From positions 210,122 to 274,121 of the forward strand of contig NMRA01000455.1 of NCBI GenBank assembly GCA_002633005.1: a DNA stretch of 64,000 bases, in the 5' to 3' direction. The DNA comes from Phoronis australis (taxonomy: Eukaryota; Animalia; Phoronida). Under the pieces are notes generated by a model. The model was not told where the DNA came from, searched no databases, and saw only the letters and a list, made by a program, of their open reading frames with translations. The translations under genes were made by a program, and so were the position numbers. This document shows positions 10,662 through 50,403 of the stretch, in pieces. Numbering within the stretch: position 1 is the stretch's first letter; each line of letters starts with the position of its first letter.

Positions 10662-10898
10662 ATGACAGATGAAAAAGAGACAATTAGCCTCACGGATGAC
10701 GAGGAAGACGACATGTCCGACTCCGAGCAGTGTCTTCCCGAACTTCAAGGAACGTTAAGCAAGTGGACAAATTATATACACGGTTGGCAAGACCGGTTTA
10801 TTGTGTTAAAGGAGTTAACATTAAGCTATTACAAATCAGAAAATGACACTTCGTTTGGATGCAGAGGTGCTATAAGCTTAAGCAAGGCTGTTATTACG
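10662..10898 (+). CDS. CERT1: CERT exon 1 (PH domain N-half)
   Basis: [22 protein letters not shown]...[13 protein letters not shown]|GTGAGT. Confidence 0.95.
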
Positions 10899-25800: not shown

Positions 25801-28800
25801 TCAGTTCCAAGACCACCGTTGTACATTTGCAGTCAATGCCATTTTGATGTTGCCTTAGCAAAGTTATTAAACCTTCTGTTGAGACACTTCCATGCCCTTT
25901 AATTTCGGAAGTGTACTTATGTATCCTAAGGAGTTTCCTGCTGGAGCTCCACCAGTTGCAATCTCAACAGAAATCCTTAAAGGGAAATTACCTGTTTTAT
26001 ATTTGAAGAAAACACATTACTAGGATTATTACATAGGTGGACTTCTTGAAAATATTAGGCTTTGATCACAGCCATAAAACAGCAAAAATCCATTATGCTT
26101 TTGTGATTTTATTACATAATCCCCAATTATTGTTGCTGTTGTCTGCCAGGCATATACTGAAATAATAGATTGTGACTAACCTGTGAATATGCTTAATTTA
26201 GCGGGGGGGGNTAGGTTTGATTCCACCCTGAGGTTGATCTTAGAAAATTGCAGTAACACCTTTCATTTCCTACAGGATTTGAAAAATCAAAAAAGTCAAC
26301 AATTTTAACCATTCATGCATCAGATAATTTCATTTTACCTGTGAGACTTTAACTCAGCACAGAAACTGACCTGTCGCAAGCAAGCTTCAGGTCAACCTAC
26401 GATATTTCTTATGACGTAATTTGTCACATTTCGGCTCGAGTCTTATGTACCGTAAGGTTTGATGACCTCGATATAAACTGCAAAGTTAATCGAACCGTTC
26501 ACACCAACTGCGGTAAGTAACGCCATTGAAGTACAGGATCATGAATAAACACTGTCGCCATTAAAGTAATTGCAAAGTAGCTCGGATGTGTAAGGTGGCG
26601 TTCAAGGTATACTGAGAAATGGCTGGTTTTTCATCCCATTTGCACTAAAAAATTTTTTAGGTGACTATTCAAGAACTTTTACGAGTGATAACGTTATGCA
26701 TTTCTCTAATTTGATTGGTGATTATTGAAGATAAAGGAAAAGCAAGTATTGATACCTTTTAATTGTTGACAATAACAGTGGCCCCTGGCGATTACTTCAA
26801 TGAGACTGAAGTTGACCATCCATACTGCAAAGAAATGTTGCTGCTCTGCTGTTAAATCCACCTGTTTACTGCAAAGTTAACTGGTGCTGTTAATTTCAAT
26901 ACAGTACCAAAGTTCATTCATACTGACCACAACTCCCCAAAACATGGATGTGACAACATTTAGTACGGAAAGGCCTACTGTGCTGTCACCTCGTGGGTTC
27001 TTGGTGTAACTAAATTGTGAAAGCTTTCTGTCACTGATGATTGATGAGTGCAAATCCCATTGATTTTGACTTGAAGCGACTTGAAGCGAGTAGACACCAT
27101 GGTGCCTAGCTTTTTTGCTAATAATACGTCCCCTTTAACGGTAAAGTTTCACCAGTTTCGGACTAAAATATTTGCTTAAATTTCCCATATCAGTTATTCA
27201 AGGACTTATCTAACATTTTTGTGACCATCCATTCCAATGTTGAATTTGAACAATGATATCGCAGTTATTTGGCGATTCGTTAATTGTCCAGTTCTTCATA
27301 GAAATACTTTAGATTAATGTTGCTTACTTGCTAGGGTAACTTTTGTTTATCGAAGCTTCGCCGAAACTTCTCTTACCTTTCCGACTAGACAGCGATGTCA
27401 AAGTCATTACTAAGATATCAGACGACGCAGTTCATTTGTACTTTCAAACGAAAATTGAGTAGTGAGTTCGAATCTAACTGAAAATTGTTCTCCTTCCATT
27501 CATGAGTCTTTACGAAAATGATCATTGTCTATTGAGAGGCCACGCCGGCTTCGCTACATTAACAAAGAACACCTTTTGCGAGTCTGGCGTGATCGAAGTT
27601 TCGCTCAGACCTTTCCCACTATGTTGAAGTTTCGGTGAGTACCGAAGCTTCGTTTTTCAATCCTACAATTTTCTGTTTAGTTTCGCTTGCAGGTTAAACT
27701 GCCGGAGTTAACGTTTCCCATTTATCAAAACTTCGATAAAAGCGAAGTTTTGCCTCTAATGGGAAAGCGACGAGAAGTTTATTCTGTTACTAGACTAGCA
27801 TAGTTTGTAATTTGTAGATCATAAAACAACACTTAGTAAGTGTTACATTAATTGTAGCAAAGTAAGCACTGCATCAGGAAAAGTCCCCTTAAAATTTTTG
27901 TGGCAGGACATGATTGATTAATGGTAGTTTCTGCTGGCATGCTTGTTATTTATGTGTAGTTATTTTTCAGGAGGTCCCCTGGCCTACTGCTAGTTATTTT
28001 AAGCTTTCTTATGCTATCATGCATATTTTAAAAACAATTTCAGAAGGCATCCCTGCTGATAAGCAATATTGTACTGCAGGTCAGTGCAGAAACTAGTTTT
28101 GCATTGATTTTTAAATTTGCAAGTACTACCAGTAAATTCCTCCTTAATCTAGGTGATAAAAAGGCCGTTTACCAGAAAGTGTCTACTGTCCTTTTCAAAG
28201 TAAACAAGACAGACTTTATCAAGAACTCTTGCATACTCTGCCAAACTTTTATAGACTTTTTGAGAATTTTTAGTCTAACCTTTTCGTGAAAATACAGTGT
28301 TTTTTGTTAAAATTTAGTGGAATTGTGCCTTAGCCAATAATTGTTCATTTGTTAATGGACTTATGCTGTGAGTTGTTGCAATTGCGATAAAGTGATTGGA
28401 GCGACATCTGTTGAGATTTTGACTAAAGTTAACCTGAATCGAAACGGGTTGTAGTAAAAAATAAGTGGCTATTTTGTCGCGGCTTTGTGCATAAAACTTT
28501 GTTAAATTTTAATTTTGTTTGGTTTATTTTGAAAACAACTGTATGGTTGAAACGGGCAACGACTGTTGAAAGCAAGTAACCCAGAAACCTCCAAATTTTA
28601 ACAACCTGGAGCAGCCCTCTAGGAAGTTAATCATTATTGGCCAGTTTAAGTTCTTGGGAGTTGTCTGAATGTCACATGGTGGAATCTTTGATTTGGCCAC
28701 AGAGTGTCTGACATGTATTAATTAAGGGGGTATTTCACATTCCTTCCTTATAGCAAAGATATTATAGTTAGTATACAGTATCTGCTTGTATGAACCCAAC

Positions 28801-31800
28801 ACCCAGAGCCTATCAACCTCTCTCTGGATCTGCACCTGGTTAACATTCTGTACAACCGAGACATTAGCCTTAAAATTGCAATGAGAAATCTTTACTTATG
28901 GAATCGGAACAGCGAATTCAATGTTCCAACCTCACCAACCATTCACCTCACTGGCTGCCATTTTCCTAAGTTGTGGTGTAAAGTGCGTGGTACACTTGTA
29001 AAACACTCGACTTCCATTCCATGTTTTTGCATAGATTTGCGTGACTTTGCTTTTCTCACAAAATTTTTTACACGTAATGCTATGGTGGAACATTTGTCTT
29101 GATATCCACTGCATGAAAAATGGCAATGCTACCTTGAACCCTGTACTGGTTCAGTGTACTTTGTATCTTGTCCCAGATGGCACTTGTTGATCCTGGAAAG
29201 CTGTGGAGTTGTGTACCAACCATGGCATTCCATGAGTTCCACTGACATAAGGTTGGCCTGGTATTTACATTATTGCTATGACAACTGGAATTCCTAGAAG
29301 TTTTGCTGGTGGCTACTGGAAAATGGGTCATTTTTCTTGAGAGAAATCCCCATCTAGTGCCACACTAAAAGTCAATTAACAGTCTTGGCCTTTGTTTAAA
29401 TTCCATGTTAATTCAGTAACAAGACTTTTGTCTGGTGTTTCCTGGTGCAGGACAATTTCTTTTACTGAACTTCTGTTCCTGAGGTATTAAAAGTAGGTAT
29501 GACCCTAGAAAAATGTCCAAATTTTGCTAACTTTTGACCATCATATCTCAGAAATGGCTATCAGATATTTTTGAAACTTTCACTTACAATGGTTTGTGCA
29601 CTGTTCTCTAAAACTTTGTTAGGAATTAGGAATTGTTTTTAAAATGGCTTTGCACCCTTTTGCATAAGGGGCTATTTAAAATTAGGACTTGTGGTTTTGA
29701 GTCACATAACTTGAAAACAAAATGATATTTTATGAGTAAGTGAAAACTATGTTTTTTGAATATTTATATCCAACATAATTTGATCATGTTTATGATACCG
29801 TTGGTTTGCCATCAATCAATATACCTTTCTTTTTTGCCGAGTTTTACCAAAAAGACGTGTTCACTGACATTTTGGTGAAAAGTCATAAGTCATTTTCCAC
29901 ATGTTTTTTACTTGATTCAGAAAGTGTATGCTTCCGTGAGTTAAAATCTGTATTGTTGTAGACATTTGGTTAAATTACACACTTGTCATTAAAATCCTAC
30001 AAGAACAGTTCACACATGACCACCTGAAAATAACTATGATAACTGATGATCTGGTGCTGGCTGATAACTAAAAGTATTTGAACCTGCATAAAGCATTATT
30101 TGATATTTGATGATTTGTGTTAGATTGTTCTTGTTAATAACTGATAAGTACTGTGTCAACTGGTGGAACATTTTAATGTGATCTTGTGGGTGCTTTGTAC
30201 TACCTGAGTTCCCTGTGAGTGAATGACTAGTCAAGTCACCTGTTTTCTCCTAATTGACCTGATCAGCTACAATACTGGCTAAAAGTATTCAGACGAAATG
30301 ACCCACAATTCCTTGTAGTAGGGGCTAGGCAGAAAAGCCAAATTCATCGTCAGTGGGTTTTCTCTGGTGACCCAGAATGAAGGGGGATTAACAGGAGTTT
30401 TTGTGGCTATGCCTGTAATTAAAAATAAACGCCAGAATACTTATTGATTTCTGAATAAGCCCTCATGGCTGAGAAATTGTATTTTGTCTGATTACTTTTG
30501 TCTCATGCTGTAGTGGTGACCTTTACCTGTAGAACATGCACCAACAAGTTTGCTCCTTCCACACACTCTGTGACTTTGGAAATGTGATCGGAATGAAGGT
30601 GTAGTCAAAATCGGAGTCCAACAAGACGATTGCTCAAACTGTATTGTCTCATCAGAATCTTAGTTTTGACAGGAAACTGATTTGCACTCCTGACTTTCTG
30701 CAATTCACAATGTACAGCTACCGCGATCTGATGATTTAGACTAATGTTATGTCGTGAAACTGATCTCGCTCATGTATGAACCCTCATCAAACCACTCAAA
30801 ACATATTCTGCAGTAACCATATTTACTGCAGTGGATTAAGCTTTTCAACTGAGTTACCATAGATTAAATTTTATACCAGTCACTAATCCCATGTTCTGAG
30901 GAGGAGTAAACATAATACCACAGTAAATTTAATCCAGTAATAGGTGACCATTGACCATTCTCAAAGAAGTTGAGCCACTTTCCTTACCCCTGCCCTGAGG
31001 AATAAAGAAAGGTTCAGTGGGAAAGCAGCTCAAGTGTCCTTTTACAGTGTACTTGTATTGTGTAACTCCCAAGTATCAGTAGCTGTAGGCCTACAGAAAT
31101 GTTGTCATCAAGGACTCTTTCTTAGGAGCTTGTTTTGTAGGATACTAGTAGTCTGTGATTCTGCATGTAAAAGTGCTTGTCCCAGAAGTTTAAGATAATG
31201 CTGCTGGGTCATTTCATTGTGATGATGTGGTACTGAATAATTACTGATTTATTGGGATAAAACATAATTTACAAAATGAATGGGTGGTACGGGGTAATGG
31301 AAGTGCTGACCGACTGAAACTTTTGACAAAAAGTCTCATCCCCCTATGAGACACTTTTTGTGACATGGAGGGAATTGTGACATTTTTCACAAACAGGGTG
31401 GATTGGGGTGATACCTATTTGCTGGCACCTCCCATGTCAGATGTTAGGAGACAGCTGGGCAGGATTTTGTCCAAAAGTCATTGAAATGATTATGACTTTC
31501 CCATAGCGTTTGAAAGTCACAAGGAATATATAACCAGCTGAGGCAAAATCTAGATTGAATTCTTGTGTAACTTTAGTTTTTCAAAACTTTTTGTGTTTCA
31601 AATACAACTACTTGAAATCCAAGAATTTTGTTCATATAGTTAACTACCTGGCTTTCAGTTTGAGTGAGTTGGGATTTTTTGGCACTTAGTCTTCTATCTA
31701 GCGGTAACTGAAGACATAAAAATATCATATTTTAAAATCTAGAAAGTCCCAATGTCCTGTGGTAGCCTTTCTCTGCACTCCATTGCCAAGCGCCCTATCA

Positions 31801-34800
31801 CCTTTTATGGACAAAGCGTTTTTCATAATGTCGCCCCTATATTGGAAAACGACTATTGTCTATAGTACTGGTGTTGTTGGAGTCATTTTGGTACACCTGC
31901 TGTGGTGAAAGCTTGCACATTATGGTTGACAAGTGAATTTTTTTTCTTTTCTCACGAAAGAGAAGTAGCACCAACCAAATGTTTAACATTTTAAAGTTCT
32001 ATACTTTGGCTACTATAAAGAGAATCTTTTGCGAAAGCATTCATAGCAACCTTGCGATGCTTTGAAAAAATAAAAAGAGATAAATTTCCATAATTTTTTT
32101 GTCGGTAATTTTTAGATTTAACTGTAAGTTGTTTAATAAAGTCTTCATTCTCTCTTTGGTTATAGCCGCACCAGTTTGACGAGTGCCGCTTTGACGTCAG
32201 CGTGAGCGACTGTTTGTGGTACCTGCGGACAGAAACTCCTGAACAGCGACAACACTGGATCAATGCACTAGAGATTCACAAGGTGAGAAATAGGGAAACA
32301 GGCAATACATAGGATACTTTACAGATAGATTAATGACCTAGGGTTACATAGGACCCTAGAGAAATGTTCAATTTTGGCCAACTTCGACAGAAATGGCTTG
32401 TCAGATTGACACAAAAACTTTGAGATACTATGGTTTGTCGGCTGTTCTCCAAAACGCTTTTAGGAATGGTATTTGGAATGTTCCGGTTTTGAATGAGAGG
32501 CTACCAAAATACCACTTAGATGGTTTTTACAAAAAAATTTGCCTGAAACGAAAAGGAATTGATAATTTAGAAAGCTCGAAATTTATGTTACTTTTAACAG
32601 GATTTGTTTGACAAAGCTATGGACAAGCAACATCTAGTAAAATTTTGAGTACTAGCAACAATGTGGTAAACCTTAAGCAATTATTTTGTCCCAAATCGAA
32701 GAATTTTTACCCTAACTGGGTGTATGTAACAACAGAGCATAGGCGCTTCGATGCTGTAAGAGAGGTCAATAGTCTCATTGGGGTTATTGGCAGTTGTCGT
32801 ATTATGTATTTTTGAAATGTGCCATTCTACAACTGTAAGCATTTCATTTCATTATATTCACACCTTACATGATTATTCCAAGTTAATACAAATTAATGCA
32901 CCAGCGTAACATTTTTGGAATGCCATCTTACAAGAACTCTGTTAACTACCGAAGCCGGTGTGAAAAGTTCAACTAACATCACGGTTTTCGTTAACACTCC
33001 TCTTGTACCGGAATCAACATCATGTGAACGGCCTTTAACTCACAGGCATAAAAACTAATTACCAAAAATGATTATGTATATTTTACTCATCACGGTGTTT
33101 TTTCCTTTCCAAGCTCATTTAACTCTGCTGTCATTCTGTTTCTAGCAATCAGAATCGGGCTACGGAAGTGAGAACAACCTCCGTCGTCATGGTTCCCTGC
33201 TCAGTATCACCTCGGGAACCAGCACGCTCTCGACGACGTCTGCTTCCTCGTTCAAGGTAAATAAGCGTTACCACGTGCTATAAATTTGGTTCACGTTTGA
33301 ACTGCTGTGCAATACAAACACTGGAAGCAGCTTAACATTTTTGAGGTTCTCCGGCTTCGTTGACTTTTCATTTACGCGCACCAAATTGATGGGATCGTCC
33401 AAAGCATTTGACCAATTTCGTCAAAATTCACCTAGTACTGTGATCATTGTTTAAATTTGAAACTCGTGGAAAACAGATGCTCAATAACACGCAAGTCATT
33501 GGAAAATACGTTAAATAATTTTTATTCAGAAATTTCGCTGAATACGGTGGGGTGTTTAACCAGCTGCCTTGCATGTTCGATAGACCAGTACCTGGAAGTT
33601 TATTTTATGCACTGCATCTTCATCTTTCTGTGCGGCATGTTTTGACATGCACATTAACAAACGCTGATAGGGTGTACGGAGACACAGCAGACTGGCTACC
33701 ACAAGTCCTGCTATTCTTCACGCATGGCAGAATTTCAAGAAACACAAAAATTTACCGCCAGTCCTTGACCTGCAGACGACCAAAGCAAAGAGAATGACCT
33801 GGCCTCTGATTGGTCGAGTTGTTAGAAGGAGAAGTGAGTCGGAGGAGATGTCCGGGAATTTTGTCGACCAAGGAGCATCGCCATCTCATCAGGCAATGCC
33901 CCATTCGTTTTTTGATTTACGTTACATTTTTTGTGGTGACCATAGTCTGGAGTTATTCTCTGATATGTTGTGTTTTGTCCCAGTAGCATTGTGTTTAGAT
34001 TTTGTTAATGTTTACAGTTTTTGATCCTGATCAGCGGAACACTTTAGTTTGGATCTTTGGTGGTCGCCTCACGCTGGCGTACAGTGGACTCACCTGCTAA
34101 AATTCTTGTGATGCATGTCAGTTTCTTGGGGTTCAACAATACAAAGCAGTCCAGAAATTATTATATTAAGCGAAGCCCAGGAGAATATGAAGATTAACAT
34201 GTTTTCTGGAAAGATGAGGTATCTCTGGTGGAAAATTTGCACAGTAAACCGAGACCTGTGCTCATTTTGACAAGTTGAATCTCATGCTTAGGAGGCATGG
34301 GGCCAATTCCAAGAAATGTCATTGTTGACTTAAGTCTAAGATTTGTCTCAACTTCCAAACTTTGAAACTTCCACCTTCCACATCCGGTAAGATAGTCAAA
34401 ATCAAAACGAAACTTAAGTCAAAAACTGAAGTCAAACTTAAGATCTCTTTCTTAAAATAGACTTGAGACAAATTCAAGTTTTATCTTAAAATTGACTGAA
34501 ATTTAAGATTTGTCTTTGCTAAGTCAATTTTCTTGGAACGGGCCCTGGTGTATTTGGTTGCTGACGAGTTGAGTCTGTTACAGAGGGGGCGTGGCCTACG
34601 GGAGAAGTTGGCGGAAATGGAGACGTTCAGAGACATTCTGTGTAAACAGGTGGAGACACTGCAGGGCTACTTTGACGCGTGCTCGCAGGCAGTGTCGGCA
34701 CTCAACCCTAGTATTCATGATTGTAAGTAGCCAATGTTGTTGCGGTTATTTTATGATTAGTTATTGGACAAACTGGAACATACTTCTTGCCAAAATTATT

Positions 34801-37800
34801 TGGAAATTTTGTCAAGTTTTTGCTTTTATCAGGGCTTGGAATTTTCCGCGGAAACGCGAATTTCCGCTTTTTTCAAATGTTCTGTCCGCGNNNNNNNNNN
34901 NNNGACTTGAGACAAATTCAAGTTTTATCTTAAAATTGACTGAAATTTAAGATTTGTCTTCGCTAAGTCAATTTTCTTGGAACGGGCCCTGGTGTATTTG
35001 GTTGCTGACGAGTTGAGTCTGTTACAGAGGGGGCGTGGCCTACGGGAGAAGTTGGCGGAAATGGAGACGTTCAGAGACATTCTGTGTAAACAGGTGGAGA
35101 CACTGCAGGGCTACTTTGACGCGTGCTCGCAGGCAGTGTCAGCACTCAACCCTAGTATTCATGATTGTAAGTAGCCAATGTTGTTGCGGTTATTTTATGA
35201 TTAGTTTTCGAAATTACTGGACAAACTGGAACATACTTCTTGTCAAAATTATTTGGAAATTTTGTCAAGTTTCTGCTTCAATAAAATGGCACTTCTGTTG
35301 AACTACAGTTAGAGTTTAATGCCATGGCACTGCGCCGAGCCACCAATTGTTTATGTGTAAAAGGACTAGCAAAATAAATTTTCACGACTTGGACAGAGAA
35401 CCACACCTATCAAGGCTTGTTGAGAATATGCTGGAATTGAAACAAGCTCTAATCTAAAAGAGTCGCACATTTAGGTGAGGTTTTTGCATTAAAAGTTTGG
35501 CGAATTTTGATGCTGATTGTCCAGCTTACTTTGAAAACTACTGCAGTATCTTTACACCAATAATTTTTCAAATATGGCGTGCTGCAAATGTTCGACAACA
35601 CGAACATAAAGTTTTTTCAATTACTCGGTTACTTACTATGACCGTGTATGACTCTGCGACTCTCTACATTCTGAAAACTAAGAAATTGCTGTTTCATAAC
35701 TTTTCAGCTCAGTCCTTGCAAAAGAGAAAGTAGATTTTTCTTGTTAGTTATTTGGACGTTTCAAAAAATAAATTCCTCTGTCTCACTAACCTAATGTACG
35801 AGAAAAATAACTGTGCACCTTGCAGGGTGTAGAAACAACACAGCTGTCTTCATAAGCATGGCTCTCTGACCACCAAGTATGGTGCAGGGACTCCATGTCT
35901 ATGAACTGTGTTGGCGATCAGTGAGCCATGTTGCTGAGTCAAGAGCTGTGTTTTTGGGTGATTAAGTCGTTTTAGTAAAACGTGCACTGTGTTGGTGGTT
36001 GGTAAGCTGTGTTTAAGAGTTGGTGAATTGAAGTTAAAGGGCCCGTGAGCCGTGTTCACTTGTGGGGAACTGTGATTACAAGTGTAACAGCCATGTTGTT
36101 TCCACTCCATATCTAGGATCAGTTTGTACGTGGGCAGTATTCTGCTGTTTGAATGCAATTTTCATTTGCATTTGTCTGTTGTGACATATCAAATTATCAG
36201 TGTAATTAAGAGGCTCTAACTTAGCTTGTGACTTTCAATCCAATTTAATAGTGACTGTCAAGATATGAGATATCATTGAGTATGGTTTGATTGAGTTCTG
36301 TCTGGTTTTGTTGTGTTGAAGATTGGAAAAATGTATTCATTTTGCTTCAGGTTGACTAATGCTTTCAGTCGATAGTCACCCATGTATTGTTTGATTGTAC
36401 CGTCTACGGTGTCTTGAAACCCGAACAAAAGTGCTTTCTGTTAAAGTACTGCATGATAGATTTCTCTTAAGTCATGAGACATTTGAGTCCATTCATTAGT
36501 AGCTCCATCTGGTGGCTTGGCAGGAAGCCTACCTATTCCCTAGTGTGGTCATCATTGGATTTTACGTACATCAGGTTTAGGACACTCTGGCTGTGTATGT
36601 TGTCCTCATGTCCAAGCTGATGCATGCAAGCAAACTACATTGAATGGAAGCTGAGGAGGCAAGACCTCAGTTGTGGCCTGCAGTCTAGTTTAGTAGGAGG
36701 CACACTCTACATCCCTAGACCGTACTGCCCCCTATTGCAAAACTTAATAAATGCCTTTTAAACAGTCATTCTGGCTGGAATAATCTTGTGTTGTTAGTTC
36801 TTTTGATGGCCAAAAAGTTTTTGTTTTGGGTGGGATTAGAGAAAACAGCGTGTCTACGTTTTAACCGGCCTATGGTCTGCATTGTTGTCAATCAAGACAG
36901 TATTTTGTGAAAAGGATTGTATTTTTGGTTAGTACTTGATTCTTGTCTACAATTGAAAAGTTTTGGCTTTGACTTTGCAAATTGCCATGAAAGAGTGTTT
37001 GATGGTGTTGGATATTGCTGGCTGGTTCGCTTACACAATCTTACACTTATTTATGGTGTTTCTTTTCTGTTAGCCGTACAAAGCGACGACATCGACGATG
37101 TTGATGACTTCGACACTCCCAGACCCGCCAATCAGGTGCCTGTTAGCGATTTCCAAGATGACAGAAGTAGTGATGGTAAAAACGACAAAGATATGGGTAA
37201 GAACTTTGTCCCTGACATACCAAACTTGTTTTCGGCACGTCTGACCTGTTACGAACTTGGTGATGAAATGTATTGTCACTGGTGAACCTGGTCAGTCTTG
37301 ACCAAATGCCTGACTTGTATGTGGCACCCTGTGAGTGGTTCCTTCTCCGATTGTATAGCGCTTGATAATTTTTCCCCTCTTGTATTTCTCCATTGTTGAT
37401 GTGATACTGAGGGGTCAGTCGCACTAGACTTAAAATGTCAGCCAAACTTAAGTCTCGCATATTCAAGCCGCAGACTCACTTGTGTCGGAATTGAAGCGAG
37501 TTGAATTTGAAAAGAAACTGATATTTAGTTGAGGTTTTGTGTGCCAAAACTTTGCCGAATATTCAAAGTTGTCCAGTTCAGTTTCAAAACTGCAATGTAC
37601 TTGTTGAAAAAATTGAACACGTCGTTGCCAGGTGTAAGCCATCATTTCGTCTTCTGGTAATGCTTGGCTGATGGTGAAATAGCTGTGTCCCATGAATTTT
37701 TGCAGTTACGCCGAGACCTTGCTGTCTGAATGAATCTGGGTAAATGGTCTTATGTGAGAAGGCTGAATTAAGCATTGGTTACCGGGGTCATACTGTTGTA

Positions 37801-40800
37801 TCATAGGATATAGTATTGTTTTGTATGGCTGTGTATTGTATTATGTGGAATTGTAATGTGTGGATTTGTATATTGACCTATTGAGACATGCAGTAAACTA
37901 GCAACACCTGGGATTTCTCCTTAAGGGATACCCTTATCCTGTCTGTTCATGTGAATAGAACATTGGTGTTTCTTAGTTGGTATATGACTTTCAGACAAGT
38001 TACGATCCTGTAGTAACTTTTGATCTCCAAGTCGAGTGCCTAGTCACGCCACCATTGCAGCCAACCTAGGAAGAACAGAAAGAGAACTTCGTTTTTACAA
38101 TTTATTGTATAAAGTATCTGAACAACTATAGCTCTAAACTTTAAAATTTACAAAAAGTTTAAATTATTATAATAGTTTGGTACGTTCTAAGGAAATCAAG
38201 GTTTTGTTTGTTTTTCTTTTCTTATTTTTATGCGCCCACATATTTATATGTGGTCGCATATTACCGTCATCTCTGTCTGGGCATCCAACGTGTACCAGAC
38301 CGCCTGCAATTATTTTTTATGTATCTCCTAAATGCTCTACATTATCTTTATTGAATTTTAGTCTGGTGTATTTATATGAAGTTGAAAGCAGAGTACGACG
38401 AGTTTCGAACAGATCGGACTATCGGTGTGCCCCCTAGTGGCATTTTTTGTTTTTTACGTTTATCTCTGTATCTTCAAAGGTTTTCAACAAATTTTCATAA
38501 AAATTAGCAAATAGACATCTATTAGTGAGGTGACGCTACCCTCTAGTTTTCGGTTGACGTTGAGGTATTTTGTGCCACCTAGTGGCCATTTTTACTGTTT
38601 TATGTTTTTTCGGCATCTGCCCCTCTGTCTACCAAACCACTCTAAGGATGATTGTGGAAATTGGCACATATGTTCCTAATGTGAAGAGTAGGGATGACTA
38701 TTTTCTGATGACTTTGACTACTGTGGCACCTCCTAGTGACAGTTTTGTTTTTTTTGCACCCATAGCTGTATCTCCTAAACACTCTGCAGGATGTTTAATT
38801 AAATTTAGCAAATCTATTCATATGAAATTGACAAGGGACGACAACTTTCAGACGTATGTTACGAACGCTGTGCCCCCTAGTGACAATTTCATTTTTTTCC
38901 GTTTTCCTCTGTTTCTTTGAAGTTCCTTTATGGATTTTAATGAAATTCAATAAATAGCTTTCTATTGAAATATGTTAGCATGTTCCCGTTTGTGGATGGA
39001 TTGGACATATTTTGCACCATCTAGTGGCCATTGTTATGAGATACAAATAAACACCCCTGGAAGCACACCATTTGCGGATCATTCATGGTCACATATCAAC
39101 GCTCTGTGTTGCTCTTGTTTATAATGCAGTCGTTAACACAGGAACACTGGTGCAGCAGTGGGCTCCTAGAAGCCCCCCCCTCCCCAGTGCAAAAACAATT
39201 GATTTGGGGGACAAGGACTTCAAGGACATCCCATGGATCTTTGATGGATATTTTTATTATCAGTTGTCTTTGTTAAAAAGTATATTTTTTTAATAACCAA
39301 GTTACGGTACAAGATGGAAGTAATCGCACAAACTTCACGATACTGTTTACAGAAAAAAAAACCCGGCAATGACCACCATGCCGGCAAATTACAGAACGGC
39401 TCAGTCACCTTGCTAAATGTTCGGTTAATTCCCATCTGTTCTTGGTCACAAGCAAAGACTATGCTGACGATGAATTCAGGGAATTCTGGGAAATCTTGCC
39501 TGAATACTTTTGGCCTGTACTGTACTGTATTAATCAAGTCATTCGACTTCAAACATGTTGCTTGAGCCGTGGCCATAGCTACTACCTGCACTAATAATTA
39601 GCACCTGAGCATGATTATACAGACATTGTAATTAGTCCTAATTGATTGGTGAGAGGTAGTCTTCGTATAGCTGATACTATGTAGGTATGCTGTAGCCTGG
39701 CTGGGTGGTGTGACCTTAAGGTCTAAGTTTAGCCTCTGCTGTTGGTCGAAAATAGCAGTTGCAGGTCAGGGTCTGGTAGTGGAAAGGTCGCGGTGTTGTG
39801 AGTCAAACTTCAGTTGTTCAGTCATTTAGGAATAGGCATTATGATTTTCTTAAAGGTTTTTGGAAGATTTTTTACTAGTTTTTGTCTTTGGCAGTGAAGT
39901 GTTATTTAGTACTAATGTTAGTCTCCACCTCAAGACTGTCAATGTATGGTAATGTATGGTAATGTATCAATATATGCCTTACTTGATAACACTATAATTA
40001 CGTGGCTGGTAAAAAGCCAGCCTGTCGCACAGCTGATATGGCATTCAGACTTTCCCCATCCCCGTTCACATGCCCGGTATTTTACAGCATCCATATTCCG
40101 TCAACACGGGGCACATGCTCTAGACTTCAAGGGCGAGGCGTTCACATTCAAGGCAACTACGGCTGGTATAATAGCCACACTTTCACACTGCATCGACCTG
40201 ATGCAACAAAGGGAAGAGGCATGGAGAAAACGAATGGAGAGGGTGGGTAGTTCAACTTAAAATGTCACGGTTTATTGATATTTTTGTCTGTTAAGGTAAA
40301 AATTTGTTTATTTGGGACAAAAAATTTATCGCTGAAATTTCCATGTTTTTATTTTGCAGAGGCTCACCGCATCGTTGCAGATATTCAGAATTTTGACAAA
40401 CGTTTGGCAATAGCTACGCCCATACAAACTGTGCTGAAAGCAAAGTAGATTTTCCTGAAACGTTATTTGTAATGAGAACCTTGACAAGGTGAAATTTTAT
40501 CTGTATGTCCACCATATTGTGTCCCAAACTGAAGAACTTTTACCGTAATACAGGTAACTCGTTTAAGGCCAAAATATCGTAGGAACTACTCACAACTTCA
40601 TGATTGTAGGCGTAAAGTAATGCACGTTGCATATCGTACTAAACTTACTGTGTGTAATTACTGTTGGATTTTGATCATTATTGTGTATAGTGAATATATT
40701 GTGTTCTCTTACTCTTTGTTTTTACATCTGGTAGTCTGGTTTCCTTGTTCGTTTCCAGGAAATTGAAAAGCGGAAAAAATACGAGGAAGCGTACAAGGCC

Positions 40801-43800
40801 GCCCTAGACGACAACCGTCGACCGCCCATAGTGGTTGGAGGCCCAGACTATGAGGTAAGGCAGCACACCGGGGCAATGTTGGTGGGCAGGGCCCGGAGAC
40901 TGTTCATGTGACTAGACCTGAATATCAATCAATTGAAATTTGAAAGTTTGGTTGAATTGTCCAATGTGATCTGTCAACATTTTCAGGCCTTAGTATTCCA
41001 AGTATGGATAGAGGGTTTATGTTGGTGAAGCTATTCTCTTGGCATTTTGTCTGCCAGTAATGCTTCTCTTTGGGAATTGGTCGAGTATTCCTCCTTCAAT
41101 AAAGGTTCTTCAAAAAAAATCAGTTGCTCGGACGTTGCAATTTTTTGTGCACCATTGATCCTACTCAAAATATTTTTTTCGAAATGTGTCTTAACTTTGT
41201 TAAAGCTATACCGACAGGTGTGAAGAGAATTGATTGTAAAATCATGTATACCAGAATTATAAAAAATTACATCAATTTTGCAATGAAGTCTTCTGTGTGA
41301 GTCTTTTAAGTCTGTCAGCCAGATATTTCTTGTTCTTAATATGTTTATGCCTTTAATAATAGTTCAAACACAACATGGCTGGTGTTGTGTGTTTTTCATC
41401 ATGAACAAAAAATCTTCTTCAGGAGGGACCACACTGTGCAATTACTGAGGATGAATTCTTCGACGCCGTAGATGCAACACTTGATAAACTTGACAAGGAA
41501 GAAGATGAGGTAATTAGAGGCTAATTACAGTTTCTGTAGCAATATATAACTTCATGTACTGCAGTGGTCGAGGTTATGTAGAGTCTTATTGTTGAGTCTG
41601 TGCATGCAGGCAATTGTCTTAACAAATGTAGATTTTAACTTTGAATTGGTAAAAGGTTAAACTTTCTAAGAGACAGAAAGCCTGTAGTTTGATTTTTCCC
41701 TTTTCACCATTCTACCATATTTGATTAGTTCACATGTGACCATGTTTTAAGTAAAATTTGCCAAAAAGGAAAGGTACATTAATAGAGAACATGGACATCA
41801 ATAATGGTAAAAATTGACCAAATTTCTAGACGAGATCTTAGAAACGCTGTCGCAGTTTTCTAGAATATCACGTTGTCTTTCATTTTATGCAACTTAGAGT
41901 ATTTTATGTTCACCCCATTAGTCCCGTATTTTGATTGCTCCTCACACACAAACGGATCATTTTAGGTTTTGGAAAACAGTGCATAAATACCATCCAAAAA
42001 TTTTATATGAATTCGGCAGGCCCTTTCTGAGATATGATGCTGTGAAGTTAGCAAAATTTGGGCATTTTTGTAGAGTACTGCATAACCTTATGTCACTGTG
42101 ACTCGCCATTTCAAAGCCAAGATAGTTTAAGATAGGGTGTAGTGATTTTTCGAAATTTATTGTGCTATAATTGTGAAGCCTTCAGCTTATTTGCATATTT
42201 GAAAACAGTTCCTTGACGTGTCATGTGTCTTTGGTACTGCCATATTACCCTATGAAAATATTCCCACAATGCAATGCAGGAAACTCACAACATAATTCTG
42301 TATTATTTATTGTAAATTGGGGAACGCAAGAAAGTCCCCAATAGGAATATTAGAAATGCTCCTAGAAGCTTAAGGAGAAGTATCCCTCAAAGGAACTTAC
42401 AAACCTTCTCCCTACCGGTGTTTGTGTTTACTGTTCTCATTTCATTGTATCAGCATCTCTGACTTCATTGTTTCTGTGTCTGTCCACAGAAGGCATTCTT
42501 TGCCGCGTCCAAACCTAGTCTTCCCCCCAAGACCAGCCTCTCTCCCTCTCATCCATATTACAAGGAGGTAAGTTCAAGATCCACTTCTTTTTTACAATTA
42601 GTATTACTTTTTTGCTGTCTAATTAATCATAAGCCCTCTTTATGTCCATAGGAAATAAAATTTCCGTCACCAAATTAGTCATCAATCTTGAGTGTGATAA
42701 AAAGCATTAAGTGTACGGTAATCTGCCGTTTAATAACACAAGAAAATCTCATTAGAGATAATTCAGTGTTAATAATTGATATACTGATGTAAACTAAAAG
42801 ATTTTCTTAATAGGTATAGCACGGTTTATGAATATTTTGTTGTATGGGCGATGCCAGGATGTCTAGCTGGGACACAGCTCTGATTGGCTGCTGTGTCAGC
42901 GGCTGGCTGCCCTTTGTCATTCTCCAGTTGTCCTGGCAGCGTTTTGTTGCTGTCTGTTTGCCGAAACATTCACGACCTTTACTGTATCGAAAGTTGAAAA
43001 ACTGTAAAGATGCCATGCGCCTCCAAAAGCTTAATGCTGTACACTAAAATCCAGATTAATGACATCGTGGGGGACCACATTCAGCACGCCTGCTTCGAGG
43101 TGAAAGGAGATGACACGTGGGAGCTGATCGCGGAGGAGGGTGAGATGCGCGTCTACCGGCGCCAGCTAGAGGAGGAGGGTATGGTCGTCGACCCCCTCAA
43201 GGCTGTACACACAGTCAAGGTAAGAGCAGACAGAGCTTCGTTAAGTCTCATAACTAACAGCATGAATATGGTGTTTGTGCAAAAGTCCTCCTTATATGCA
43301 AGTCGCATTAATTAGATATAATACTCTACTTTAAATATATTACTGCTTTGAAGAGCCTGCTAAGTTGGCGTATGTGTAGACAAATCAAATAGAACATTTG
43401 TCCCAGGGTAATGGTTCTTGCGTAAAAACTACTCTGGGGCCTTTTTCGTGGAAAGTGACCTAGGACTAAGAAAGAAGTTTGGTCTTACGCTCCACACTAC
43501 TATTTCTGAAAAATAATCAAATCTCACGGCTTGAGCAGAAGAGCTTTTGAAGAGTTTTTGAGCATGTACTTAGAACTGCTAGCTACTGAGATAATTTCTA
43601 TAAATTATTTGTAGACTGTGATGCACTCATAGTCACTTCACCAAACCTTTATTCAACAATTGTGAAGTGGGTGGGTAAGACCAAATTTCTGTCGTAAGTC
43701 TTAAGAAGTCACTTTTATGAAAAGGACCCCTGGCCGGTCAAAAATGATCAAGTTAAAATAAGATAGAAAGGCTGTTTAAATTCTACCGGTAAGTTTCATT

Positions 43801-46800
43801 CTGTTCACTGGATACCCTTAGAAAAGCTGTTGTGCGAAACTAGATGTCCCAAGGTAATAGTGGTATTACGACTCAGTATAACTTTAAATACATCTCCTAT
43901 TCCTGTGTTCAGTTACACAACATTCAGTCAAAGCTGAACAAATATTGATTGTTTCAGGAACCGTGTCTGAGCAGTAAATGTGATTAATGGTCAGCATTTC
44001 TTACCTTAAGGTCAACGGCCTGGCGTTTATTCCACTAACTTTAGAAGTCACGATGTTGTCAATTAAACTATTTGACGGTCTATTTTGAGTACCTTAGGCA
44101 TGTACTCGCAAACAGGTTACTGAAGCTTGGTTCAAGGTTGATGTGCTGTGACTGGGTTGGGGGGGGGGGGGNGGGGGGGGGGGGAGTTTCTTCTCAGCTC
44201 TCTGAATTGTAACTCTCTCGTCACTGAGATAGGTGGTGCGTTTTAATGAGAATGAAAAGTGAGTTACAGTTTGTAGAGCATTATTAACTAGCTGACTGCT
44301 GTGAAGTATCGGAGTTGCCAATTTGAGTACTTTGGTCGTCAGAATAGCGTATTCTAACAGTTTTGTTCAGTTATTAGGTCTCATTTTCCTGCCAGCTGTG
44401 TGCTTGCAGTACAGAGGATTTTTTCATGAGCAGAGCTTTTGTTGTAGGGTATTACCGGAAGAGAAATTTGCTCGTATTTCTGGGACGTCAACGTTCGCAT
44501 GGACTGGGAAAATAAGCTCACCGGTAACTATGCACTGTATTGGCGTGTCTTTTCTAGTCGCTGTCGGCGCGCTTTCAATTTCTAGCCTTTGTTTCAGGGT
44601 GTCACTGGCCATGAGATGGCCCACATGTTCTGGGACGTTAACGTCAGAATGGAGTGGGAGAATAAATTAACTGGTAACGTAGCCGTCATGCACCGTCCTT
44701 GCCACCAGGTGGCGGTAGCTCACTCCCCACTGTCTCGCACCCTATTTCTGTCTGCACACTTGCTTTAAGCCTGTTCACACACGCACGCAAACTGTCCAAT
44801 GAGCATGTTGAAACGGTAGTGATTTAGCCTGATTGTAATTCTGTAATTGGGGACACATTTGATATGCACGTCTGATTTTAATACATCATTTAATTGGTTG
44901 TCATCACTGTATTGTATGAAATAACCTAACAAAATGATGACTAAGTGCATGGGGAATTTCCTGTCACGACAGCTGAAAGTTCGCAAAGTTTCTCATCATG
45001 CCTTTTGATGACTAGGGAAAAGAATATAAATATACTTGCCTTAAAATATATCTCGCAAGCATTTCTAAGTCTGGTAAGCATGCTACCTGTGGCCACATCA
45101 CGTGGTCTAATGAATATAAGTCTAAAACATATCTACACCAACCGGGATTTGAACCCCGGGACCTCCTGTTAACCATGCAGAAGGTTTCATGTTCAAGTCC
45201 TGGTTGGGGCAGAAATGTTTTTAGACTTATATTCATGAGGTCAAGTGATGTGGCTACATGTGGCATGCTGACCAGACTTAGCAGTGTTTGAGAGGGAGCA
45301 GAATATTGTGTAGTTGTGTTTGGCACTTGCTGTTTATGGCGGTATTTACACCCATTATTGCAGTCTATTCTGTTATGACTGTTGTCTGCGTATTCATTTC
45401 AATTTTATAGGGATAAAGAACGTTATCAATACTATACTACTCGCCAAAAAAGTTCAAACAAAATGACCCAGAATTCCCTGCTATGATGTCTGATCAGTGT
45501 CACAGTTACTGTAGCAGTCCCTTGTTACATGGAATCAACAGTAAATCTAGTAATGTGGCTGTAGTTAGAATTCTGCCACCTAAAAGTCGAAATACTTATT
45601 ACCAGTCATTTTTGCTGTGAACAGAATTGGCTGTCATGACGTTGGAACGGTATTTTGTCTGATTTCTTTTTTCTGAAAATGTTACGTTTTTGCCGTACTT
45701 CAGTGCCAAATGAAAATACATTCCTAGTTACAATATGAATTTAACTGTACCCGAACAATTCTACAAAATGCATACACGCAGCCCTCCACTGTTGATGATT
45801 TGAAATCGTTCAACACAGATTAATTGTACTGTGTGCGCGACAGGTACACAAGCCGACTCCATGGTGCTTTCGCTTCTGATTGAAAGTTCCTCACTTGTTA
45901 GATATTCTGCTTCTATTTCTTGATTACAATGCAGAGCAATTCCAATTTTTGGGTCAATAGCTACCGGGGTGCACTCTGAGTATCTGAATCGCTGAACACA
46001 GCATTTCAGCGACTGCATGGGGGATGGAAATGAAATTGTCCTTTCGTGAGACAGAATTTACTGGTCTACATTAATGCTAGATTGATTTTTGGGAAGAGTG
46101 AATTATTCAAATTTTATGAACTACCATAAGTGTTTAGGATAACCCTCATGCTGCTATAAGTGAACTCTACTTTTCAAAAATGCTCTAATTAAACGCCAAC
46201 TGCTCGGACTAGCACCCACCTCTACTGTAAAATGCCCCGTCGCTATGAAGTGACGCTTTCATATTGCCCACATGTATTCAGTCAACCATGCAACTGTTCT
46301 GCCTCAACTTTCAGTGTCTCCATTTCCTAGTTCTCCATGCTGCCTCTGCTCTGAAAGTCCTTCCATTCATTGGATAGTGTTTCCTATTTGGAAAGGCCTC
46401 GGTGTCTGTGCATTGATAGTGCCTAACCGCATCATCTCAAGAATAATGCCATAACCCTACCAGTTTATTGTCTGCTATCTTTTGCATTGGAAACCAGCTG
46501 TTCATGTGTCAAACCATGTCTTTAATGCTTTTAAAACTACTACCAAAAATGATTTTCACTGTTATGTTTCAGATTCTATTATTGCACGGGGTTAACGTAT
46601 TTTAACAGCCAAGGAGTCAATAACAGTGCAATTCTTTTTGTGACTCCAGTGTCCTGTGCTCTTGACGTTTAGTGGTTGCTAGTTTGTACAGTCAAGACAA
46701 AAGTAATCAGACAAAATACAGTCACTGCAAGACAAAAGTAATCAGACAAATTACCATTTCATCGTCATGCTGGCTAATTCTAACAACAAAAAAGATTTGT

Positions 46801-49800
46801 AATTACTATTATGCCGGCAAAATTACAATTACAGAATGGCTTGGTGACCTTTACTAAATTTTCTGTGGATTCTCCTTCATTCTCAGTCAAGAGAACAGGC
46901 TACTCTGAGTATGAATTCGACTTCACCCAGATGTCGTGGCGGAAAATTCCGTGTCATTTTGTCTGTCAGAATACTTTTGGCATATATTATAGTTGCAGAG
47001 TTTCTTGCTCCATGACCTCTTTCTGAACTCTGTTCTATAACATGCTATTTTCTAAGTTCGGCCTCAGTTAAGTGCGTGACCATCAAAATAGCTTTCGAGG
47101 GCGTATTGCTAGCACCACCCCCTATTGGGCTATACGAACGTAAATACAGTCGCGTTCATTAACAGTTCCTTCATGGCTTACTGACTTGCAAACACGGTTC
47201 ACTGATTGCCAAGCAAGATGCCGGACTCGCGCAGTCTTTGTCGGTCATAGAGCCATGTTTGGTGATCGGTAGGTCAAAACTGTGAGTGGCAACTAAGTTC
47301 ATCGGGTCAATAAGCCCTGTTTATAAGGAACTATGGTAGCTGTTCATTTATTTAACACACACAATATGGCCAGCCAGTGAAACTTTAAAGTTCTCCACAA
47401 AAATAAATATATAAAATGGATCAGTGAAATTTTCGGATATTATAACATCCTTTGTCTGTTTCTGTTGATAATAATGTTTATTATAATTCCCACTATTTGC
47501 AAAATTGGTAATCATCGTTTGAACAATAAAAAAGGAACATTTTGGTGATTTGGCAATTGTTGTGCCCACCTGTTACGACTTTGAAAACAATGTTAGGAAA
47601 TTTCAAGTTATTAGGTATTAGTGTGAAAAGAAAAAATTGCCGTCAATGTACACAAAATTTTAGGGCACAATATGGCCGACGACTGAAGTTATATTACATC
47701 TGATTCATATTTTCCATGTAGATATGTCACACTAAATGAGCAATTCCCTGTTCAAGTCCATACTTTAAGTATCTTAAAACGTTTTGAAAAAGTGTGTCCA
47801 TTCACAACACTTGAAAATGAAAAATGCAGTTTTGGCAATGCCTTTGTCTTATTTAAGTGAGATTTTACCATGTAGGAGGACACTTATGGACCTGTGGAAC
47901 CTAAAGCAATGTACGGATTCCTAGCTTTCTTGCAAACCCCTGAGAGGTCAACATAGAGTTTCCAGTCTGTGTGTCAGTTTAGAAGTTCCTGACTAGTTTT
48001 TTTGCAGTGGAGAAGTTGACCTTGTATAATATGTTTTCTTTATGGCTTCAATATGCTCGCTGTGCCACAAAAAGAATCACATGTCCCTTTTTCGTCACAC
48101 AGGTACCCTTGAGAACACTACGGTGCTGGAGTGGCTGTCAGAAGATACTGTCGTGTCATATCAACAGCACAAGAAGGTATGGCCAACGGCGCAGCGAGAG
48201 TCGCTCTTCTGGTCGCACATTCGTCACGTTCCCGACGAGCATGAGGACGGACCAGACTACTGGATCGTCTGCAATTATTCCACGGAGCACCCCAAGGCAC
48301 CTGTGAGTAGCCTAGCATTCAAAAATATTGCCCATTGCCCAAAGCCATAACTGGTCTTTATTGTTGCAAATCTGAAAAGCTGTTGACGCGCTAGGGTTAG
48401 ATGTCCTTCTCTCTGTCTGAAATGCAAGACTTAAAAACTGGCGGTTTGACCAACTGCTCAAAAACTAGTTACCATGTGTAAATGCATGCAGGACGTTGAG
48501 AAGATGTGTCCACACTGTAAAAACTATGAAAGAGCCAGCCTTCTTGTCAGGGTTAGCCAACGCCTGTGATCTGCTTCTTGCCAGTAGCGTGCGACCTGCC
48601 AATTTATTGTATTAGTTGAATCCAACTGCTGTCGGTACAAAGAAATTGTTAACAACTTATTTTATGGTTTTCACATTTAAATGAAAAGGAAGTGCTTTTT
48701 TAAGTATACAGATTTGACTGATTGATTTCAAAAAATAAAATGCAAGAATGATCATCAATGACTGTACAATGTGTCAGCTCATAGATCGGTCACACAAAGA
48801 CTTCATTCACGTTGCAAACATTTTTTGTCACAAGTGCTTCGAGAGCAAACCGCAGCAGGCTGGTCTCAGCAGACATCAAAAAGAACATTATTTCAGGGTG
48901 TTCTATAAGAAGAAGTCTCTTCTAGCTTTTTGGTGAATTTTTGTGTTGGCCATTTCTCTTAGAAATTTACTTTCTTTGCAGAAGAACACTAAGTGTGTGC
49001 GGCTGCGCTTGAACATCGCCATGATATGTCAGACGATTGTAGCGCCACCTGCCGATGGAAAGGAAATCACTCGTGATGATCTTACATGTAGGATACAGTA
49101 TGTGGCTAATGGTAGGTGTTTCTATTCATGTTTCCATGGCTTCTAAATTTGAATATATGAAATTTGTGACGACACATTCCTTTCAACTATTACCCTACCT
49201 GGTGATTACCATTTTCAAAGTTGTTTGTGGAATGCCTTTTAGCAAAAACGATTGTTGCGGCAAAATCGGATACTATTAAGATTTGTCTGAATGTGAAGTA
49301 ACAGAGAACTACCCTCTTTTTGAAAGGGGCATTTCACTGCTATTTAGTTGTCATTGTTGATTTCTTAACTGAAGCGCTTTCTGGTTTAAACATTACACTC
49401 ATCTGATCTTATGATTATTTATAACCCTTTTTAAAATATTGTCTTCCTGAAATATCTTTGTAGTTAGTGACTGTTAACCCATATCGTTCACAACAGTGTC
49501 CAATCTCGTGGTCAGGTGACCTGCATTTTTATGTCTGTGTTTTGTTTTGCTGAGTTGACTATGATCGAAAAACAACAGGTGTAAGTAAATTCATTGATAG
49601 TTTTCCTAAGTTTACCCAACCTATTGCCATGGTGATAATGTTGTTAGAGCAAAGATTTTCCCACAATTTCCAACTAATTTTCTGTCATATTTTGTCTGAT
49701 TTTCCATGTTTTCACCTGATCTTAGATGCACTGCTTTTGAAAACCCCTTCATTTTACATCTGCAGGGGCCTGTCTGACAAAAATGATGTAACTGTATGAT

Positions 49801-50403
49801 GGAGACCAGTGGCTGATTTAGAAGGGGGCCATGGGCCCCCTAAAACTCTCCCAGATTCCATTTGGCAATTGGGGGGTGCGAATGTCTAACAAGCAAAATC
49901 TTGGCTAATACTATGCCCTGGCCCCCCTAATTAAAAATCCTGGATCCGCCCCTGGAGACATACGCCAAAACTCGCCACTGGTTGTCTGTAGGTTTCTATG
50001 TAAAAAATATCGCAAAAGTTAGTATTCTCTAATTGCACAAATTTGGTATTATACTTGAAAACAACGTATTGTGTCCAAAGTACAGTGATTCTGCATGTTT
50101 GGAGCAGTCGCGCTGTTAAAACTGAAGGTAAAACGAGGCATTGTGTCCTAAACAACAATGCACAACAATCATTTTTTGCAGTGCCACCAAAGTGTGCAAG
50201 TGATGAATATTTTAGGGAAACAGGCCCTAGATGTTCAGTCGTTCATTGGATCTCAGTGTGGGCATTTTTTTTCAGTGAACCCAGGGGGATGGGCTCCCTC
50301 GTCTGCTCTGCGGATCGTTTACAAGCGAGAGTACCCGAAATTTCTCAGGAAGTTCACGCAGTACGTCATAGACAAGACTGCCGATGAGCCGATTTTGTTT
50401 TAA
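10662..50403 (+). CDS. CERT1: Ceramide transfer protein (CERT/COL4A3BP/STARD11). Exons 10662-10898, 32166-32282, 33146-33256, 34584-34722 (copy 35028-35166), 37074-37196, 40088-40242, 40759-40854, 41423-41509, 42490-42567, 43055-43219, [44448-44523 OR 44598-44673], 48103-48302, 48982-49111, 50276-50403
   Basis: All junctions are GT-AG and phase-compatible; total 1842 nt = 613 aa + stop. Recognised PH domain ([12 protein letters not shown]), LRRHGS plus serine repeat, [19 protein letters not shown] motif EFFDAVD and START domain ending VNPGGWAP...KREYPKFL...PILF*, collinear with vertebrate CERT. Confidence 0.96.
12701..12950. mobile_element. Tc1/mariner-type MITE (TA TSD)
   Basis: TA|CAGTACAAG...CTTGTACTG|TA; related copies at ~30269-30512, 39305-39522, ~45430-45665 and ~46690-46990. 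Confidence 0.8.
14580..18862. repeat. ~2.1-kb direct duplication (14580-16746 / 16748-18862) around a single N
   Basis: Near-identical copies abutting N16747; probable uncollapsed haplotype overlap. Confidence 0.85.
14828..15341. mobile_element. TIR element, possibly PIF/Harbinger-like (second copy ~16996-17475)
   Basis: TTTACACCAGAGACAG ... CTGTCTCTGGTGTAAA inverted termini with internal TGACAC repeats. Confidence 0.6.
19004..19188. repeat. Foldback/inverted-repeat element
   Basis: Arms GCATCTTTGTTCTGCATTCACTTCCATTGAGCAA / TTGCTCCATGGAAGTGAATGCAGAATCAAGATGC. Confidence 0.7.
19774..19849. mobile_element. ~75-bp hairpin MITE
   Basis: TTTTGAGAACCAGTTT...AAACTGGTTCTCAAAA; further copies at ~11327-11400 and ~23060-23125. 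Confidence 0.75.
24933..25475. repeat. ~270-bp direct duplication around N25200
   Basis: 24933-25199 vs 25201-25475, with a few SNPs/indels. Confidence 0.85.
32166..32282 (+). CDS. CERT1: CERT exon 2 (PH domain C-half)
   Basis: ag|[39 protein letters not shown]|gtgag. Confidence 0.95.
33146..33256 (+). CDS. CERT1: CERT exon 3 (PKD site and serine-repeat motif)
   Basis: [41 protein letters not shown] bounded. Confidence 0.95.
34299..34544. mobile_element. GGGCC-terminal MITE (Harbinger-like)
   Basis: GGGCCAATTCCAAGAAA...TTTCTTGGAACGGGCCC; related copy at ~54172-54394. Confidence 0.7.
34584..34722 (+). CDS. CERT1: CERT exon 4 (copy 1)
   Basis: [33 protein letters not shown]..., donor T|GTAAGT. 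Confidence 0.9.
35028..35166 (+). CDS. CERT1: CERT exon 4 (copy 2, likely the other haplotype across the N gap)
   Basis: Same peptide with one synonymous difference; separated from copy 1 by the N run at 34891-34903. Confidence 0.75.
37074..37196 (+). CDS. CERT1: CERT exon 5 (acidic linker)
   Basis: ttag|(S)[17 protein letters not shown]...KDM|gtaag, phase 1-1. Confidence 0.85.
38225..39030. mobile_element. Helentron/HINE-like element with five diverged ~145-bp tandem units
   Basis: Starts TTTTT plus hairpin ATGCGCCCACATAT..ATATGTGGTCGCAT; units end in GCCMCCTAGTGRC-like motifs at 144-154-bp spacing. Confidence 0.6.
39305..39522. mobile_element. Tc1/mariner-type MITE copy
   Basis: TA|CGGTACAAG...GAATACTTTTGGCCTGTACTG|TA. 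Confidence 0.75.
40088..40242 (+). CDS. CERT1: CERT exon 6
   Basis: [43 protein letters not shown]. Confidence 0.95.
40759..40854 (+). CDS. CERT1: CERT exon 7
   Basis: [32 protein letters not shown]|gtaag. Confidence 0.93.
41423..41509 (+). CDS. CERT1: CERT exon 8 (FFAT motif)
   Basis: [29 protein letters not shown]. Confidence 0.95.
42490..42567 (+). CDS. CERT1: CERT exon 9 (78 nt, pre-START linker)
   Basis: Long pyrimidine tract + cag, [26 protein letters not shown], donor GAG|GTAAGT, phase 0-0. Confidence 0.8.
43055..43219 (+). CDS. CERT1: CERT exon 10 (START N-terminus)
   Basis: [34 protein letters not shown]|gtaag. Confidence 0.95.
43437..43729. mobile_element. Harbinger-like MITE, CTG TSD
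   Basis: ctg|GGGCCTTTTTC...GAAAAGGACCC|ctg. Confidence 0.6.
44448..44523 (+). CDS. CERT1: CERT exon 11A (mutually exclusive variant A)
   Basis: ttgtag|[25 protein letters not shown](G)|gtaac, 76 nt, phase 0-1. Confidence 0.88.
44598..44673 (+). CDS. CERT1: CERT exon 11B (mutually exclusive variant B)
   Basis: tttcag|[25 protein letters not shown](G)|gtaac, 76 nt, phase 0-1. Confidence 0.88.
45065..45281. mobile_element. Foldback element with tRNA B-box-like sequence in the arms
   Basis: CTAAGTCTGGTAAGCATGC...GCATGCTGACCAGACTTAG; ~100-bp imperfect arms; GGGATTTGAACC. Confidence 0.7.
48103..48302 (+). CDS. CERT1: CERT exon 12 (START)
   Basis: [40 protein letters not shown]...[14 protein letters not shown]|gtgag. 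Confidence 0.95.
48982..49111 (+). CDS. CERT1: CERT exon 13 (START)
   Basis: [23 protein letters not shown]...CRIQYVAN|gtagg. Confidence 0.95.
49807..49954. mobile_element. Same MITE family (opposite orientation to 3204), 5-bp TSD
   Basis: CAGTGGCTGAT...GGATCCGCCCCTG, TSD GAGAC. Confidence 0.87.
50276..50403 (+). CDS. CERT1: CERT last coding exon
   Basis: [42 protein letters not shown]. Confidence 0.96.

Follow-up and report, generated by a model that had tools for sequence, protein, structure and literature searches.

We detected that the CERT gene of Phoronis australis carries two adjacent homologous exons, A and B, only one of which the reading frame tolerates in a transcript. The duplication, the selection on both copies and the frame that accepts exactly one of them are established, and A and B are probably spliced in a mutually exclusive manner, producing two CERT proteins of equal length; the mutually exclusive use follows from the frame logic taken together with the selection on both copies. 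The pair lies on the forward strand of the window (the whole 64,000-nt stretch of contig NMRA01000455.1 that was analysed), with exon A at 44448..44523 and exon B at 44598..44673, 76 nt each, separated by a 74-nt spacer intron (44524..44597). It is flanked by the constitutive exon 43055..43219 upstream, which has a phase 0 donor and RNA depth over the exon, and the constitutive exon 48103..48302 downstream, which has a phase 1 acceptor, both on the forward strand.

The whole CERT gene (10662..50403, forward strand) consists of 13 constitutive coding exons and the A/B pair. In the gene model all introns are GT-AG, no internal stop is present, and the product has 613 aa whichever of the two exons is used; Pfam PH (N-terminal) and START (C-terminal) domains were matched on single exons. 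The full gene-model protein has its highest identity to Lingula CERT (70% over 593 columns). A quick tree of 22 rows (the window protein and 21 homologs picked from 120) placed it with the lophotrochozoans but not within the starred mollusc clade, and no starred node includes it. According to the literature, CERT transports ceramide out of the ER to the Golgi and determines how fast sphingomyelin-type lipids are made. Within the gene, no diverged copy of any other CERT exon was found. The surroundings of the pair contain several other features. A 152-aa open frame at 2337-2795, upstream of CERT, shows a match (E 4e-13) to a Pfam domain of ISXO2/IS1595-like DDE transposases and is probably a transposon fragment. 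In intron 1, at about 14900-17600, weak tblastn matches are paired about 2.1 kb apart around a single N at 16746, suggesting another haplotype or an assembly duplication. The intron after B contains a 76-nt inverted repeat (45052-45294, 84% complementary, 91-nt loop) that repeat-derived reads cover on either strand; its likely origin is a small non-autonomous transposon.

The features of the pair listed in the preliminary description (lengths of 76, 74 and 76 nt, AG acceptors, GTAAC donors after an exonic G, phases 0 to 1, and both translations) were all reproduced, and A and B have equal length, the same phase and compatible AG/GT splice sites. Scored by a small matrix made from the CERT gene's own sites, the donors of A and B reach 5.0 and 2.5, compared to 3.3-11.0 for the 12 constitutive donors, the B donor being the weakest in the gene, while the acceptors (5.9 and 8.7) are both strong. 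The donors, GTAACT and GTAACG, do not match the U12 donor consensus. Both exons match CERT residues 426-448 as neighbouring homologous exons, with PDB matches to the human CERT START domain at E 6e-7 for A and 1e-4 for B. A departs less from the family consensus and has R at the usual H430, and B is the more derived copy, with A at the usual C433 and M at 435.

A and B are identical at 49/76 nt and 18/25 residues; at the codon level, 8 of the 25 are the same, 10 show synonymous differences and 7 encode another amino acid. Synonymous sites are saturated (pS 0.91 vs pN 0.24, Fisher p 7e-6), most clearly in codons 11-25 (pS 1.0, pN 0.08), where 14 of the last 15 residues are nevertheless identical. 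In 200,000 simulations of neutral change, each with the observed number of 27 changes, not one retained 18 residues and stayed free of stops. This saturation at a low pN implies long-standing selection on the protein encoded by each copy, in agreement with the earlier proposal of an old duplication under purifying selection, and it argues against an assembly artefact, as does the 49/76 nt identity with no gap between the copies.

With A alone or B alone the frame is intact from donor 43219 to acceptor 48103. Since 76 is not divisible by three, double inclusion and double skipping both shift the frame. With A and B included, a stop follows at codon 467, 389 nt ahead of the last junction; with both skipped, the stop is at codon 513, 99 nt ahead of that junction. 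These frameshifts support the initial claim that exactly one exon must be used. Retention of the spacer keeps the frame, but places an in-frame stop inside the spacer. A stop well upstream of the last junction is the usual trigger for nonsense-mediated decay, and decay of the double-inclusion and double-skipping products would enforce exclusivity. The short spacer may additionally hinder A-to-B joining. Candidate branch adenines are located at spacer positions 33, 54, 55 and 61, the distance from the donor to the likely branch point being about 54 nt; this steric route is borderline, with the likeliest branch adenines at 54-55 nt compared to the <50 nt criterion of PMC5740500. The two weak GTAAC donors, identical to each other, would leave the A/B choice open to regulation. 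RNA structure around the pair is no more stable than in shuffled sequences (z 0.35), and, of 62 inverted repeats, the 25 listed include none that pairs with either exon.

The two exons differ at seven sites (427, 430, 432, 433, 434, 435 and 444 in human numbering, fixed from the human PDB segment by the spacing of R442, W445, E446 and T448). The segment was expected to include the equivalent of E446, and R442 and E446 are present in both A and B. R442 and E446 are named as ligand contacts in PMC11228987 and PMC3127847, and PMC7729066 gives E446 as a ligand contact and W445 and T448 as contacts from docking. Since A and B share R442, W445 and E446, the view of the preliminary description that the swap remodels the lipid pocket does not hold as worded; the Asp/Glu difference that it pointed out is real, but is located at 444, not at the ceramide-binding 446. 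In the accessible parts of the CERT-ligand literature searched, none of the sites 427, 430, 432-435 and 444 is named as a contact, and the terms H430, Y435 and C433 have 0 occurrences.

In the AlphaFold model of homolog P0003, which represents a homolog and not the window isoforms (local pLDDT 82-92, TM 0.94 to 5jjd_B), the segment forms a helix at 429-437 and a short helix at 442-445, with the next strand starting from 449. Five of the seven differences are within 430-435, on the first helix. Two of them are at sites conserved in 24/26 distinct homolog segments (H430 to R in A, C433 to A in B), while the sites most variable in the family (439-441 and 443) are identical in A and B, and E431 and F436, invariant in 26/26 segments, are the same in both. 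Cys433, the single Cys behind the earlier suggestion of a redox difference, is kept in A; its presence in 24/26 segments indicates that B lost it. The clustering in 430-435 (p about 0.002) and the low mean variability of the differing sites (p 0.01-0.03), both from variability-weighted draws and post hoc, hint that the divergence of the 429-437 helix may have been directed.

Every residue at the differing sites is also present in some other animal's CERT: R430 was found in Lineus, in one Macrostomum domain and in locus L002, and A433 together with M435 in Macrostomum. The A segment matches the Octopus segment at 18/21 residues and B at 14/21, and is thus nearer to Octopus than to its own neighbour; the best homolog of B reaches 15/21 with B. 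The Macrostomum protein P0006 has two START domains that differ by R/H at 430, the same swap as in A/B, and may be a fused gene model. L002 (1010-2764) is an intronless, divergent CERT coding sequence in a 12.9-kb metagenome contig, also with R at 430.

We consider that the functional difference between the isoforms is most likely modest and indirect, through helix packing, stability or a surface contact, and not a changed head-group site. The possibility that both exons are used, but the proteins are near-equivalent and the pair is kept by divided expression or by mis-splicing into decay that tunes CERT levels, is a serious one, although somewhat short of an even chance. The identity of the named contacts, the occurrence of each differing residue in some homolog and the tendency of variable residues in such pairs to be surface exposed, as described in PMC7954323, all fit near-equivalence. 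On the other side, the differences avoid the variable 439-441 and 443 and fall on the conserved 430 and 433, with the post hoc probabilities given above (0.01-0.03, and about 0.002 for the clustering).

A direct change of the lipid pocket by the swap, leading to different ceramide preference, kinetics or redox sensitivity, appears doubtful. The exon carries R442, W445 and E446, and sites 432 and 433 are positioned, in the modelled helix, one helical turn before F436, which presumably lines the ceramide cavity, so that I432M and C433A could shift the cavity wall. However, no named contact differs between A and B, and the differing sites are nowhere named as contacts in the accessible literature searched. 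A true change in cargo between the A and B forms is unlikely in our estimation.

RNA depth was analysed from three P. australis runs, with 14-17% of each run read, representing at most three samples of one study. Sense-strand depth was detected on both exon bins in 3/3 runs (A 1.51, 1.1 and 0.3; B 1.35, 1.25 and 1.08). The intron background was taken from the 12 of 24 bins without opposite-strand signal, the other 12 being dropped as repeat-derived. The summed depths, 2.91 for A and 3.68 for B, each exceed 11 of these 12 repeat-free bins, which range from 0 to 3.93 (mean 1.58), the one bin of 3.93 being above both exon bins. After background subtraction, A (3.2) and B (5.0) together reach 8.2, compared to 9.1-20.7 on the flanking exons. 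These values weakly fit each exon taking part of the transcripts, the A/B bin depth being only about twice the intron background in a library that includes intronic reads. No CERT splice joint was present among the 15 of 24 joints listed from the three partially read runs, a table that consists mostly of repeats.

It is improbable, on these data, that either exon (the derived B being the likelier candidate, or else A in case of rare use) is a recently disused, still intact pseudo-exon. Such disuse would agree with the B donor score of 2.5, the lowest in the gene, with the absence from B of the Cys present in 24/26 distinct homolog segments, and with the lack of a CERT junction among the 15 of 24 RNA joints listed. 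It is opposed by the identity of 14/15 last residues despite saturated synonymous sites, by the strong acceptors on both exons and by the sense-strand depth on the B bin in 3/3 RNA runs.

A feature that the preliminary description does not mention is that both A and B end in the residues NKLT directly after the E446 equivalent, encoded by a 12-nt extension at 44511..44522 in A and at 44661..44672 in B (forward strand). The insertion is absent from 121/121 homolog segments (from 120 listed proteins, mostly vertebrate and redundant, about 19 proteins not) and also from loci L001 and L002. In the P0003 model its position corresponds to the link, three residues long, that joins the short helix to the strand following it, and the insertion would affect both isoforms equally. 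None of the 4 differences between the two extensions alters a residue (p about 0.0015 if 4 changes were random), which indicates that the NKLT nucleotides are coding.

The presence of the insertion in both copies and its absence from homologs place the duplication later than the insertion. The donor of a single ancestral exon would have moved 12 nt downstream, adding NKLT; the NKLT-bearing exon would then have been duplicated, and the copies would have diverged, mainly at 430-435. On this sequence comparison, the A/B pair is presumably lineage-restricted and not pan-lophotrochozoan. Because Lineus resembles A and P0003 resembles B, we also considered that exons of an A-type and a B-type separated anciently and run through several phyla; this history was set aside as less parsimonious, given NKLT in both copies and in no homolog, although early gene conversion is conceivable.

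It is very improbable that the true exons have 64 nt and end before NKLT at non-canonical AT donors, giving a protein without the insertion. This would restore the length of 121/121 homolog segments, but it needs an AT-AG intron twice, with AT donors scoring -1.1 and -1.4; the 4 differences within the extension are without exception synonymous (p about 0.0015), and the GT donors restore a Gly found at this place in several lophotrochozoan homologs. As for an AT-AC intron, no AC position near 48103, checked by eye, gives an in-frame product. No support emerged for a minor-intron origin of the donor shift; the CERT gene name is absent from the text and supplements of the minor-intron papers searched.

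The chance that the pair is an assembly artefact, for instance two haplotypes placed side by side, is practically negligible: a genuine artefact does exist in the same window, in the form of CERT exon copies at 34584-34722 and 35028-35166 flanking an N gap (34891-34903), but those copies are identical at 138/139 nt, and at 99/100 in the intron, whereas A and B share only 49/76 nt with no gap, and where reads depart from the window in the flanking exons, the three exonic changes listed are single and synonymous. The assembly overlap at 34584-34722/35028-35166 could itself be misannotated as an exon duplication.

A CTCF-like motif was detected at 44702..44714 (forward strand), an exact pattern match that starts 29 nt past the B donor and is a lead only. 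The pattern scanned was a CTCF-like consensus. The window contains 11 matches at 10 sites with at most one mismatch, compared to 0.62 expected (sites at 10097, 22877, 36503, 38428, 38573, 38871, 39015, 44702, 50457 and 54512). Four motifs are clustered on the minus strand (38428-39027), and one is found 54 nt past the CERT stop codon; the 44702 motif has unrelated flanks. Exon inclusion has been linked to CTCF bound downstream of the exon (PMC4446157), and the putative motif past B could, as a post hoc lead, be relevant to the A/B choice. A combined scenario, in which a repacked 429-437 helix (with Arg replacing His in A, and Met-Ala-His-Met in B) and the lineage-specific NKLT would jointly tune which ceramides or ceramide-like lipids form the cargo and the CTCF site past B would help to choose between A and B, is speculative and distinctly unlikely; if true, it would be the first splicing switch within a START lipid-transfer domain that alters cargo.

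The CERT exon pair is apparently undescribed, while the class of duplicated either-or exons is well known and common in animals. The assumption of no prior description agreed with the literature searched; subscription papers, some supplements and public annotations were outside the search and may list the isoforms. The A/B alignment search gave no candidate protein. A scan of metagenomes revealed no genomic copy of the pair, the 2 loci recovered from 299 pattern matches both being intronless CERT coding sequences, and a scan of prokaryote genomes revealed none either, the 6 loci from 33 matches being short chance matches without CERT. As a splicing phenomenon the pair is ordinary. A and B are, on the other hand, natural START variants that differ in one helix, and they provide a ready-made test of the effect of non-head-group residues on cargo choice or transfer rate, while NKLT beside E446 tests how much change the ceramide site tolerates.

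The pair resembles those of the human mutually exclusive exon catalogue (PMC5740500) in consisting of adjacent homologous exons of equal length and phase that are not divisible by three; in that catalogue, frameshift-guarded pairs are the commonest kind (377 clusters, 60%), and 57 clusters (9%) have a donor-to-branch distance of <50 nt. It also resembles the pairs of the structural survey PMC7954323, where the variable residues gather on a single structural element close to a functional site. Unlike in both studies, exclusivity is here deduced from frame and selection, not from junction reads. CERT/COL4A3BP has no occurrence in the main text or in the searched supplements (10 and 6 files) of PMC5740500 and PMC7954323.

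Compared to the human CERT START domain (PDB 2e3m, 5jjd, 5zyg), A and B represent the same segment and fold, with R442, W445, E446 and F436 kept, but both copies add four residues after E446. Among the listed vertebrate CERT segments, no second version was found within a species, a weak comparison with one representative per 90% cluster. Vertebrate CERT and CERT-L (GPBP) are two isoforms of one gene produced by alternative splicing, CERT-L containing a 26-residue cassette exon just upstream of START that acts as an on/off insertion. The A/B pair differs from this cassette in being an either-or swap within the START domain itself.
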